Shown piece by piece: positions 7,921 to 26,737 of a stretch of DNA of 64,000 nucleotides. The notes beneath the pieces were generated by a model. It saw only the letters and a program-made list of their open reading frames with translations. It made no database searches and was not told the DNA's origin. The stretch is from Eledone cirrhosa. Its lineage: Eukaryota. The DNA is taken from positions 42,966,001 through 43,030,000 of the forward strand of contig OZ024754.1 of NCBI GenBank assembly GCA_964016885.1, read 5' to 3'. The position numbers and the translations under genes were made by a program. Within the stretch, counting starts at the first letter, position 1; the number at the start of each line of letters is the position of its first letter.

Positions 7921-8099
7921 AAGTTTTAATATAGATGAGATTCTACAGGACTAGAACTGTTTCATTCTTTAGAAATCATCAGGAATCAGAATGAAACAGT
8001 AGAATCCTGTAGAATCTCATCTATATTAAAACTTTTATACTCTGCAATGTATTGAGTACCTTACTTACTGTGGTTACCTCCGATTCAACCCGGAATAAC
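7921..8099. mobile_element. Hairpin/hammerhead element family A
   Basis: Inverted arms 7921-7968/7988-8034; loop carries CTGATGA on the minus strand (TCATCAG 7976-7982); unique tail to 8099. Confidence 0.85.
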
Positions 8100-8168
8100 G
8101 TATATATATATATATATATATATATATATATATATATATATGTGTGTATGTGTATGTGTATGCGTGTG

Positions 8169-8325
8169 TAGGAAAAGAGTCAGGACCCCGACGGCTGAGC
8201 TCCGGCCGTTTCGACAGCTAGATCCGAACTGGCTGTCGAAACGGTCGGAGCTCAGCCGTCGGGGTCCTGACTCTTTTCCTATTACCCACTCTACTACCTT
8301 AGGTATCGAGTACTCTGGTGCGTTA
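8169..8325. mobile_element. Hairpin element family B (GAAAC-GGCC-G hammerhead-like half)
   Basis: 52-bp arms 8169-8220/8230-8281 with 2 mismatches, 9-nt loop, unique tail; related pieces at ~7510, 17632, 25408, 42972, 44730, 48278, 51088, 51780. Confidence 0.85.
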
Positions 8326-9129
8326 TATATATATATATATATATATATATATATATACATATATATATATACACATATATATATATACATATATATATAC
8401 ACATATATATATATACACATATATATATACATATATATATATACACATATATATATACACATATATATATACACATATATATATATATATATACACATAT
8501 ATATATACACATATATATATATACACATATATATATACACATATATATACACATATATACACACATATATACATATATATATATATATATATACATATAT
8601 ATATATATACATATATATATATATATACATATATACATAATTACACGCCATACACATTTGTTAATAATTTAATAGATGTGTTACGCTTGGTATTTTGAAA
8701 TGAAACCCCACGAAGAAGGAGTAGGAGAAGGGGGAGGAGGTTGGGATGATGATGATGATGATGATGAGGAGGAGGTTGTGATGAAGTGCGTTGTTTTTGT
8801 CTGTGTACCCTTCACTTTCAAGTCTCTCAGAGTACGTTTTTGTTTCCCTTGATTTATGTTTAATTTTGAAGCAAAGATTATATTATTTTACATTAGTGTA
8901 TTTTCACACACACACACACACACACACACACACACACACACACACACACACACACACACACACACACACACACACACACACACACACACACACACACACA
9001 CACACACACACTGTACCAATCCAGGGCATCGAGTTCGTGGAATTACTAAAGAGTCGTCGTAATCAATGCCTTGCTATAATCATTTCCATCTTTTTGTATT
9101 CAAAGTTCAAATCCCTCTCTGGCCAAACT

Positions 9130-9225
9130 TAATTAGCAAAATGTCGAGATGCTTCTTGAAAAACTCTACATCCACTCTCTTAAGATTTTCGGCAGCTTAT
9201 AAGGAGCTGAGACCCTTTGAATATC
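9130..9225 (-). pseudogene. CR1-like LINE ORF2 3' fragment
   Basis: Minus strand FKGSQL...VDVEFFKKHLDILL with frameshifts, resembling CR1 C-termini. Confidence 0.5.
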
Positions 9226-9572
9226 AGCATCTGGACCTTTGGTAAGTTTAACGATATCCACCATCATGCAAGCGTTTGTGTCAGGTACATGTCCAGCCTA
9301 ATACCGGGGTCGATTCTTCATATCTCTGGAAGAAATCTGCTGTACTGGAGAAGGATGGGCTCCGTTAGGTTTAAAATGCTCAAAAAACGCTGTATGTCTA
9401 TACGGCGCCCCCCTACGACTCTATCAGGAGTTAAGGGACCAGACCATACCATACCAATACAAATACATGAGAAGACTCACGGCAACTATCTTTTGCTTTC
9501 TGATAAAGCTCTGCCGGACTCCTAATTAGGAACAGATTCTCATATTTTTCTCCTATATTTGTCAAGTAAAAA

Positions 9573-23142: not shown

Positions 23143-23893
23143 TTATCATCATCATCATCATCATCCGGTGGTCTCAACCGAAATGGACTCAACAATTGAT
23201 CTCCACGTGGCTCTGTCGTTCATTGCCGTTGCCAAGTCCTGGATTTCAATACCAGAATCTTTAGAGATGACATCAGGGGTAGGAGAGCTAGTGGCCCCTG
23301 ATATTAGTGACTGTTTGTGGTTTACAAAGCACTAATGGGGACACAGCCTCGGAGGTGGCACGATGGCAGGGGCCACCAAATCGTGATAGAAGAGCTTGTG
23401 GCCCCTGTTATTAGTGACTGCTTGTGGTTTACAAAGCACTAATGGGGACACAGCCTCGGAGGTGGCACGATGGCAGGGGCCACCAAATCGTGATAGAAGA
23501 GCTTGTGGCCCCTGTTATTAGTGACTGCTTGTGGTTTACAAAGCACTAATGGGGACACAGCCTCGGAGGTGGCACGATGGCAGGGGCCACCAAATCGTGA
23601 TAGAAGAGCTTGTGGCCCCTGTTATTAGTGACTGCTTGTGGTTTACAAAGCACTAATGAGGACACAGCCTCGGAGGTGGCACGATGGCAGGGGCCACCAA
23701 ATCGTGATAGAAGAGCTTGTGGCCCCTGATATTAGTGACTGTTTGTGGTTTACAAAGCACTAATGGGGACACAGCCTCGGAGGTGGCACGATGGCAGGGG
23801 CCACCAAATCTTACTCTCCTCCTTTTACGTACAACGACAGATATGCGTGGGAGGCCGGCTTATATCTCTCTCAAAGTCAGATGTAGCCAGCTT
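23143..23893 (-). mobile_element. RTE-type LINE 3' end with internal tandem amplification and (GAT)n tail
   Basis: Minus strand SWLHLTLREI*AGLPRISVVVRKRR..RFGGPCHRATSEAVSPLVLCKP...RGH*LSYP/DVISKDSGIEIQDLATAMNDRATWRSIV. Confidence 0.8.
23284..23810. repeat. 107-bp minisatellite, ~5 copies
   Basis: GTGGCCCCTG recurs at 23291, 23398, 23505 and onward. Confidence 0.95.
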
Positions 23894-24997
23894 ATCAACA
23901 CATCATCATCATCATCATCATCATCATTACCATCATCCCCACCACCACCATCATCATCATCATCATCATCATCGTCATCACCACCACCATCGTCACCATC
24001 ACCCCCCCCCCCACCACCACCACCACCACCATCACCACCACCACCATCACCACCACCATCACCACCACTACCATCACCAAGACCATGTGTAAGTAAAGCA
24101 GTAATTTTAGACAAGGTTTGTGTTTAGTAAATATTACTAGTTAAGATGGCGGCTGTTCTGCCATGATTTCCTAACATTAGGTTGTCTGTAGGACAACATC
24201 TGCCATTCAAACAACTTGCTGGAACCTCATACACAAATGTCACACAATCATTTGGTGTCTAACAACACTAGATACATAACAACAACAACAACAGCAACAG
24301 CAGCAGCAACAGCAACAATAATAATATCAACAACAAGAACAATAATAATAACAAAAATAGCCAAAATAACACCAACAATAACAACAGCATCAACACTAAA
24401 TGCACAACAACAATAACAACAACAACAGCAACAACAATAACAACAACAACAACACTAAATACACAACAACCATAATAATGTTGATGATGATGGCGATGAA
24501 AAGGGGGATGGTGGTGAAAGTTGTGATGATGATAGTATGTATGTGTGTATATATATATATGATGACGATAGTATGTATGTGTGTATATATATACACGCAC
24601 ACACACACACACACACACACACACACACAAAGATCATGAATACAAGTTTTAAACCCGAAATTTTAGGTCGTAAAGTCACTGATATAACGTAGCTTCATGA
24701 CTATTATATATAAAATATGTCAAGTTATGTATTCGTAATCTGTTTACAACTAAGGTTATATCTATGTGTGTGAAAATTCTCCATTAGTTTTCTCGTTTCC
24801 AACATATATTGTGACTCGCAGGCTGCCCTTCCTTGAAAACTAATTAGTAGGGGATGATAACTAGGAATGTTACTTGGGTGGGAGGGGGGAGTAGATAATT
24901 TACCTTGCTGACGTAACCTTCTGCTCACTTCTCTTCGGTATTTACTTGCTTCGGTACAATTTAAACATTTTAAACACAACCAATGAGACTATATATA

Positions 24998-25288
24998 CAG
25001 TCTGCCTCCGGCACTCGCGGTCCCGGTTATTCGCAGAATTTTCCTTAGAACCTAACTAATAATTGATCGTGGAAACCACTACATATTCGTGGAATCGTAA
25101 ATATCTTCGCGATTTTTAAAATGGCTTCTAACGTATATATATATATATATATATATTTCTTTTTTTTTCACGATTTTTAACGTTAAATTATTAATAACAA
25201 TATACTGTATTCGCTGGCCTATATTTTACGTTATATTTTGACGTTTATAGGCATCTTTATGGAGCACGTCCAATATTCGCGGGTTTTG
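24998..25288. mobile_element. pogo/Tigger-type MITE, truncated
   Basis: TA-CAGTCTGCCTCCGGCACTCGCG; colinear with 28823-29164. Confidence 0.75.
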
Positions 25289-26571
25289 ATGCTGCTCTTC
25301 CACTCATGTTTTCTATTTAATTTTGGTTGGAGTTCGTTTATGTTTGTCGATTCTGTTATATATATATATATATATATATATATATATATATTATATATTT
25401 ATAACAAAGAAAGTGTGGTAAGAAACCAGGTGGACCATAACGCACCAGAGTACTCGATACTTAGGGTAGTAGAGTGGGTAATTCGAGGCAAGATCGATGT
25501 AATGATCGAACCTGACTCTGAAATCGCAAGGTCCATATATATATGGATAGTCGATTGACTTTCGTCAAATCGGACCGAGGAAACAAATTTTTCGATTGGG
25601 TCAACCTAAGGTTATGATAAATCGAACCCGGTATCTCAGATGCGAACTATTAATCACTCAACCGGCAGCCAGGCCTGCATAGAAGTTTAGTTTTAGTAAA
25701 AGTAATAGAAGATTTAAAACAACAACAACAACAATACAAACAAAAATGAGAAAGAAATTGTTGATATCATGTTTGTTACACCTTACATTAAAGGTAACAT
25801 TGTAGATAGATAATTTGAAAAAAATCTCATGAGAAAACACAGATAAGAGATTTGGCAGGTACGGACAGGATATGGAATAAAGAGTTCTAATAGAATCTAC
25901 ATATTTTAAAGTATTTGGCAGTTGAAAAATCTAAATAGTGTTGCTGTTGTTGTTGTTGCTGTTGTTGTTGTACTACTACAGCTGAAAGTTTCTTGTAATT
26001 GTATTAATTCTGCTGCTGTATTTGAGAAGTTCGTTGATGAATTGTTGTCAGTGCAATGAAAACATAACTTATTATAACTGTTCTCCAATAACAAGATTGT
26101 GTATCAACAACACACGATAAAAGTCGCTTAGTTTACTACTGTGATAAGTGATGTTAAACTGAGCTTGGCTTTCGTTTACTTTGCTTGCTATCTTTACATA
26201 GCTTACCATCATATCGTCACTATCTGGAGGCCTGCCTGGCACAATAGCTCAATCATGTGTCTTTCTTCATCACACACAAACATGAGTGTGTGTATGAGAT
26301 ATTCATATATACATATACATATATATATATATATATATATTATGTCTGTGTGAGTCTCCTCCCCCTCTCTTTCTCCCTCTCTCTCTCTCTCTCTGTCTCC
26401 CCCCCCTCTCTCCCTCTCTGTATATATATGTATATATGTATCGTTACCCGAGTGTGGTATTGTAATCAATAAAGAAAGAGCCCTCGATATGTAAACAGGT
26501 AAATATATATATAAATATATATATATAAATACATATATATATATATATATATATATATATATATATATATT

Positions 26572-26737
26572 TAATATAGAAATGGCTTCTACAGGACTAG
26601 AACTGTTTCATTCGAAGGGATTTCCTGATGATTTCTCCCGAATGAAACAGTTCTAGTCCTGTAGAAGCCATTTCTATATTAGATATTTATACTCTGCTAT
26701 GTATTGATTACCTTACCTAATGTGGTTACCTCCGATT
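26572..26737 (+). mobile_element. Family A hairpin/hammerhead element (flipped loop)
   Basis: Perfect 43-bp arms 26572-26614/26639-26681; CTGATGA 26625-26631 on plus strand; GAAAC...GTC; tail to 26737. Confidence 0.9.

Follow-up and report, generated by a model that had tools for sequence, protein, structure and literature searches.

Family A hairpins consist of two pieces joined head to head

A 64-kb stretch of non-coding, repeat-rich eukaryotic DNA (Eledone cirrhosa contig OZ024754.1; hereafter, the window) carries a family of short hairpin elements, family A, in which every copy combines an inverted piece, whose start is the arm end, with a direct piece bearing a tail. We consider it probable that family A is the hammerhead-bearing 3′ end of a Penelope-like element (PLE), and that its hairpins arose when two pieces of this end, 5′-truncated to different extents, were fused head to head as they inserted into (TA)n. 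An initial annotation of this DNA had described two of these hairpins, with a common tail and with their loops on opposite strands, and had compared them to the flip and flop ends of parvoviruses. The hairpins and their opposite loops were borne out, while the comparison did not hold.

Simple repeats occupy 23% of the window by our own mask, and a repeat search of the raw window was swamped by microsatellites; copies were gathered by self-BLAST of the masked window. The family A pieces, referred to below by their first position, are as follows.

7922..8100, + strand: copy of the 'flip' type; inverted piece at 7922-7987, which is the longer one; direct arm at 7988-8033 and tail at 8034-8099; flanked left and right by (TA)n
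26571..26739, + strand: copy of the 'flop' type; inverted piece 26571-26614 (the shorter), junction letters at about 26615-26621, after which the direct piece begins near 26622; arm end at 26682, tail reaching 26737, where (CA)n cuts it short; (TA)n at the left
7377..7471, − strand: copy whose inverted piece measures about 60 nt and has a mutated core, plus about 9 additional nt and only the final ~20 nt of the tail; no second arm
17767..17904, − strand: copy with a 47-nt inverted piece reaching 26636 on the reference; direct piece beginning 22 nt before the arm end (22-nt right arm); full tail; (TA)n on both sides
53878..53921, + strand: arm-only piece adjoining a repeat resembling a short interspersed nuclear element (SINE); absent from the initial annotation

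The 7922 and 26571 copies fold as strong DNA hairpins (z-scores of -13.8 and -16.4, respectively, with 0 of 200 shuffles as good), and the tail common to them shows about 79% identity (170 columns). We decomposed each copy on a monomer reference comprising loop, arm and tail (26615-26739). Measured 5′ of the arm end, the inverted and direct pieces are 61 and 43 nt long in the 7922 copy, 44 and at least 61 nt in the 26571 copy, and 47 and 22 nt in the 17767 copy; the 7377 copy has a 60-nt inverted piece and no direct arm. An inverted piece is thus joined to a direct arm in three of the five pieces, and to the tail end in a fourth. What the two pieces have in common makes up the arms, and whatever the longer piece has beyond this makes up the loop. 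The loop is antisense ('flip') when the inverted piece is longer, and sense ('flop') when the direct piece is longer. The tail, about 65 nt long, belongs to the direct piece only and lies outside the inverted repeat, on one side. The automatic split into two pieces is unreliable for pieces shorter than about 10 nt; rows with such pieces (the right end of 7377, 53869 and, in family B described below, 7499, 44727, 48244, 51088 and 25392) were excluded from the flip/flop counts, and the right end of the 7377 copy was judged by eye from alignments.

The 7922 and 26571 copies carry a 15-nt loop word in opposite orientation, the former on the minus strand and the latter on the plus strand, with 15 of 15 nt matching as reverse complements. 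The local score between the loops is 30 against the reverse complement and 8 in the forward direction, a score of 30 being reached by 0 of 20,000 shuffles. Differing in length (19 vs. 24 nt), the loops fall short of exact mirror symmetry, and the two copies are different sequence variants. The ratio of three antisense loops to one sense loop given previously carries little weight, as it counts unlike structures together: the 7377 copy lacks a right arm and the 17767 copy retains only about 4 bases of the loop.

In all three two-armed copies, both arms carry the same private variants; the two pieces of each copy therefore come from one source, or were homogenised later. A (TA)4 or longer repeat lies within 2 nt of 7 of the 8 ends of the four copies, compared to 8% of random unmasked positions within 5 nt, a figure that is somewhat circular, copy boundaries being partly set at masked repeats.

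Three local observations concern these copies and their surroundings. At 7997-8006, in the right arm of the 7922 copy, a local change has the form of a 5-nt inversion or of a copy of letters 9 nt downstream. The 9 extra junction letters of the 7377 copy (7398-7407) match a stretch of family B (8226-8235), a family that has a copy at a distance of 30 nt; the match may stem from capture between families or from chance. Beside the 26571 copy, a nested inverted-repeat element (26861-27010) contains two CTGA-type words and a GAAA and fails the hammerhead descriptor.

A type I hammerhead is predicted across loop and arm

The initial annotation had proposed that the loop bears a hammerhead, and this identification was upheld as a predicted type I motif by a descriptor scan (core CUGANGA and GAAA, helices I to III, and an NUH site in the predicted pairing). 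The loop and the arm form the motif jointly, and both hairpins singled out initially pass the descriptor, as follows.

7939..7987, − strand: predicted type I hammerhead; helix I of 5 bp, CUGAUGA core, U-U plus a 3-bp helix II with a 4-nt loop, helix III of 4 bp; predicted cut after 7944
26622..26667, + strand: predicted type I hammerhead; helix I of 3 Watson-Crick pairs and one G-U; loop II at 26636-26639; predicted cut after 26663

The predicted cut site carries an A. Seven cores in the window pass the descriptor, compared to none in 100 shuffles. Five further type I motifs belong to other families (40601, 50892 and 53272 on the plus strand, 5128 and 12897 on the minus strand), several of them in (TA)n. 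Across public data, the stem of helix II is conserved and loop II (26636-26639) is hypervariable; the commonest variant lengthens helix I to 6 pairs within one head-to-tail read type.

A scan of metagenomes and phages with the core motif yielded 8 loci with 4 distinct sequences, which share the core and helix II and are not family A beyond this motif; the arm motif had no match in the metagenome scan. Three of the four distinct microbial loci pair as complete type III hammerheads (helix III of 5-6 bp, helix I of 7 bp). Because microbial loci with the same core pair in this way, the predicted pairings support the view that the core with a U-U-closed 3-bp helix II may be a real ribozyme variant. 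The microbial and phage motifs are intergenic (L001:3501-3526, L002:209-234 and L003:3501-3526, the same sequence recurring in L005-L008), with no Rfam match at an E value of 0.05.

Other families in the window have the same build

A second hairpin-plus-tail family inserted in (TA)n, family B, is unrelated in sequence to family A and carries the 3′ half of a hammerhead. It occurs in both loop orientations, as tail-only pieces and as arm-only pieces (8163-8323, 51780-51936, 7499-7558, 17633-17752, 42971-43105, 44727-44812, 48270-48331, 51088-51146 and 25404-25500). The lengths of both pieces could be given for four of the nine; in the other five, one piece is absent or shorter than about 10 nt.

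8169..8323, + strand: inverted piece longer (57 vs. 52 nt); near-perfect hairpin closed by a 7-nt antisense loop; the junction coincides with the fold-back predicted at the hairpin preceding the hammerhead 3′ half
51780..51936, + strand: direct piece longer (at least 62 nt, against an inverted piece of 17 nt); served as reference
17633..17752, − strand: direct piece longer (19 nt inverted vs. 36 nt direct)
42971..43105, − strand: inverted piece longer (51 nt vs. 7 nt direct)

Several sequence-unrelated families of the window share this build. Family C (7570-7909 and 59060-59193) has a longer hairpin with an antisense loop and a tail, a hammerhead-like core and an unclear helix I; family E (51194-51704) likewise has a longer hairpin, an antisense loop and a tail, with a degenerate core. 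At 53108-53365 lies a tail-less hairpin with a hammerhead motif in both arms.

Public reads and contigs contain 5′-to-5′ joints at many positions

Parts of 7499-8100 are present in fourteen listed sequencing runs from 10 studies, three of which hold at least half of the words. No RNA run is among those listed, a neutral result as regards transcription. Four runs were aligned to the monomer (26613-26739) at 80% likeness, giving 15,521 contigs from X1, 9,288 of 12.5 million raw reads from X15, 43 contigs from X5 and 9 contigs from X7. Among the 15 joints listed of 47, on which all joint figures here rest, 11 are strand switches and 4 are head-to-tail returns, one of the latter being a 78-nt unit. 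All 11 listed strand switches are 5′-to-5′ fusions, since their sides are too long to fit between the joint and the start of the stretch. They are spread over 26622-26693, and three of the 11 have one piece that begins inside the tail, beyond the arm. Seven were seen in both X1 and X15, which come from separate studies; the remaining four were seen in X15 only, with 2-6 read starts each, and could include library fold-backs.

Loop, arm and tail are collinear in 7 of the 8 listed X1 pieces and in one X5 piece, with 10-18 differences; the collinear X1 pieces therefore come from other loci. In these contigs, a loop in sense with the tail recurs at many other loci and is no one-off, although the inverted arm is not shown there; the sense-loop-plus-tail arrangement is the ordinary monomer. 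In X15, the depth of the arm is about four times that of the tail, and 882 tail-less loose ends lead from arm sequence to TA repeats. The 78-nt head-to-tail joint is carried by 79 X15 reads with 16 starts, and the window contains no such array. Partial head-to-tail tandems, as in the pseudo-long terminal repeats (pLTRs) of PLEs, are absent from the family A copies of the window; the 4 head-to-tail joints listed come from reads and contigs.

A Penelope-like origin and possible routes to the hairpins

Features of this kind have been described for PLEs. Passages of PMC8557442 report that PLE insertions often have an inverted 5′-truncated copy at the 5′ end, a tail of 30-40 nt at one end and a bias for (TA)n. 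Head-to-head inverted pLTRs with an optional tail are described in part of PMC3846280, where self-priming on an antisense template was proposed, and minimal hammerheads on opposite strands, 100-700 bp apart, in part of PMC4209133. According to sections of PMC11167929, a PLE protein cuts and extends both target strands, the spacing of two reverse transcriptase (RT) start sites corresponds to the tail, and ribozyme cleavage is dispensable in vitro. From the two-piece structure, the variable junctions, the target and the motif in our copies, we infer the involvement of a PLE enzyme and an RNA intermediate, with the pieces joined at insertion. The most fitting interpretation of family A is a short PLE-type family, not listed before, with the known inverted-copy-plus-tail build, and its source was probably a short non-autonomous element of Hydra-clade type. 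The Hydra clade is defined by protein characters (RT phylogeny, RWK/DKT motifs and a C-terminal endonuclease lacking CCHH); family A, which agrees with it in hammerhead layout and (TA)n target only, is a putative member.

A PLE RT/GIY-YIG protein acting in trans would cut the (TA)n target and make both pieces. By one route, synthesis would be primed at each end of the target, using two RNA start sites of which one includes the tail and the other does not, giving two opposed cDNAs of unequal length that are joined at their ends, much as in the dual-priming scheme outlined in part of PMC2837659, in which cDNAs are primed from both target strands. By the other, a single cDNA or antisense strand would fold back, prime itself and be resolved at one end or the other. 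We give dual-end priming only the slightest preference over fold-back self-priming, and the present data do not separate the two. Either route would lead to both loop orientations at insertion, and most likely it was then that flip or flop was fixed. The initial annotation had also suggested a hairpin or snap-back intermediate. Fold-back survives from this idea as one published hypothesis for PLE inverted repeats (in the relevant passage of PMC3846280), whereas a fixed loop flipping between fixed arms misfits the copies.

The positions of the junctions may bear on the joining step. The long pieces of family A (n = 3, including 7377) end in the 5′ strand of helix I, and the short pieces (n = 4, including 17767 and 53878) end at loop II. 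Other than at the family B copy at 8169, visual inspection of the junctions gave microhomology or filler of 0-3 nt. Breakpoints may cluster at the ribozyme helices, though numbers are small. Given these end points, and a family B junction that is an exact fold-back, we tentatively raise the idea, which we regard as possible but doubtful, that the helices set where both PLE pieces stop and join, the hammerhead serving as built-in microhomology for second-strand priming with no cleavage required. A separate proposal, that the direct piece begins at the ribozyme cut site, was not supported: the direct piece of the 17767 copy begins 2-3 nt upstream of the cut.

Weighing of alternative explanations

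Several points weigh against a PLE origin by two-piece joining. The tail, at about 65 nt, is longer than the 30-40 nt usually published. The 7922 and 26571 copies are near mirror images (61/43 vs. 44/61), which random truncation does not predict and which would need hot spots. None of the window's 132 frames gave an RT or GIY-YIG match, as expected for stubs, and family A matched no octopus Naiad or Hydra sequence listed in the PMC8557442 supplement by short motifs, in a partial text whose line breaks can hide a match; family B was likewise without a match to the listed Naiad and Hydra sequences in the same short-motif search of that text. Minimum-energy folds of short monomers favour structures other than the hammerhead. 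Rfam gave no hammerhead match for the copy, but was equally silent on a well-formed control motif and on the microbial loci; the rows listed were only hairpin and microsatellite noise of microRNA type. As for the joints, short-read fold-back chimeras can mimic them, though 7 of the 11 also occur in the contigs of another study; the ends at 26622 and 26640 are partly forced by divergence from the reference; and the joint table holds no information on which piece bears the tail, so flip and flop hairpins cannot be counted genome-wide.

The near mirror symmetry is also the chief argument for a different history, in which the hairpin was inserted one way and its loop was inverted later by recombination between the arms or by template switching during replication, a PLE origin being still compatible with this. 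The long piece is about 61 nt and the short piece 43-44 nt in both of the mirror copies, the small rearrangement in the right arm of the 7922 copy resembles a template switch, and conversion between arms could equally yield the private variants that the arms share in all three two-armed copies. Later inversion cannot, however, explain the other breakpoints of the 7377, 17767 and family B copies, some of which lack a second arm; the mirror copies are different sequence variants and hence not inverted sisters, and the joints in reads scatter from 26622 to 26693. We therefore regard later inversion as unlikely. An artefact of assembly at hairpins, or a miniature inverted-repeat transposable element (MITE), i.e. 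a DNA transposon, with a CTGATGA word by chance, is less probable still. Hairpins in microsatellite-rich DNA are hard to assemble, and both loci are known from the assembly alone; however, individual raw reads of 150 nt contain head-to-head joints, as do contigs from a different study, and the arms within a copy differ at several sites. Full hammerhead pairing seldom arises by chance (0 in 100 shuffles), and a tail outside the inverted repeat, on one side only, is at odds with a MITE.

The least probable account, and one to which we attach almost no weight, is that of a DNA element of parvovirus-like or rolling-hairpin type, the ends of which an HUH/Rep protein would resolve to flip and flop. 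Parvovirus inverted terminal repeats (ITRs) have an asymmetric loop between inverted arms that is found in both orientations, and these forms are exact reverse complements with fixed ends, in a genome that encodes Rep. Family A offers stable DNA hairpins and two loop orientations, as this account would have it; unlike parvovirus ITRs, it has no fixed ends, no exact reverse-complement forms and no Rep gene. The boundaries of arm and loop are not fixed, since junctions vary by copy in families A and B and in public reads, and some copies have no second arm. The loop is one half of a predicted RNA ribozyme, of which the arm is the other half. Some units are joined head to tail and some arms run into (TA)n with no tail, the copies are shorter than 200 nt, and several unrelated families of the window have the same build. 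Finally, none of the 132 non-repetitive reading frames of the window reached the Pfam cut-off, so that no HUH/Rep, RT, GIY-YIG or other domain was found there.

Other repeats of the window

The window also contains an abundant SINE-like repeat of about 190 nt (3053-3559, 30233-30837, 31272-31918, 52906-53101 and 63492-63799, among others). It is arranged in tail-to-tail inverted pairs, with its 3′ 77 nt repeated ahead of full copies and also present as a tandem of 6-7 units at 31272-31733. We take it to be reminiscent of octopus SINEs, an assumption that a paper search for the SINE motif with octopus did not confirm. A minisatellite with units of about 96-103 nt lies at 37651-39511 and a long G-rich simple-repeat tract at about 32300-35650.

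Comparison with known systems

Two-piece joining of a PLE end would be an ordinary insertion outcome that resembles a MITE or a flip/flop hairpin, and repeat pipelines would misfile it. The insertions are short enough for one short read to span both junction coordinates, and thus provide material for testing how PLE inverted ends form. This question, and whether hammerhead helices guide the join, are called unresolved in passages of PMC8557442 and PMC11167929; if helix-guided joining were true, thousands of tiny insertions within one genome would be a natural experiment separating dual priming from self-priming. We found no paper on loop orientation forms in PLE hairpins, in a search blind to subscription papers and bioRxiv supplements. 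PLEs are mentioned in an octopus genome in PMC13282606, the relevant passages being without hairpins or hammerheads.

The closest likeness is to the Hydra-clade PLEs (Penelope-1 to -18_HM, Hydra-1_Amil and Hydra-1_Obim), as presented in the accessible parts of PMC8557442 and its File S2. Like family A, these have a type I hammerhead near the 3′ end, with a short helix II and a 4-nt loop. A U before helix II and UGAA after it are found in 14 of 25 families, as in family A, compared to 0 of 6 Chlamys/PLE-X families in the File S2 table, which holds no Penelope/Poseidon, Neptune or Nematis hammerheads. The ACAG/CUGU helix III of family A recurs in 4 of 25 families and its (TA)n target in 26 of 27 rows, and an inverted 5′-truncated copy is listed for Penelope-13_HM. 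Unlike these elements, family A has no linked open reading frame, its copies are 95-180 nt long, and its helix III loop is 8 nt rather than 1-3.

Family A also resembles Adineta Pen2a and Pen3a, which, in the sections of PMC3846280 that describe them, have head-to-head inverted 3′ ends, an optional tail at one end, junction palindromes and AT-rich targets. In vitro, PAc cuts and extends both strands and uses two RT start sites (part of PMC11167929). Unlike in both of these systems, the family A pieces are each below 70 nt plus the tail of about 65 nt, giving a hairpin the size of a MITE. The non-LTR retrozymes of bioRxiv 10.64898/2026.07.22.740005 are, in its available text, non-coding, carry a type I hammerhead and have a proposed PLE origin; the 78-nt head-to-tail unit in reads may be comparable to them. 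They form tandem arrays and circular RNA, whereas the copies in the window are single head-to-head insertions, known from DNA alone. Lastly, in L1 twin priming and the proposed dual priming (passages of PMC2837659), opposite-strand cDNAs meet 5′-to-5′ with little microhomology or filler, as here. Twin priming uses adjacent, non-overlapping parts of the RNA, whereas both family A pieces begin at or near the 3′ end, and a palindrome results for this reason. By analogy, the build of family A would fit the dual-priming scheme better than twin priming.

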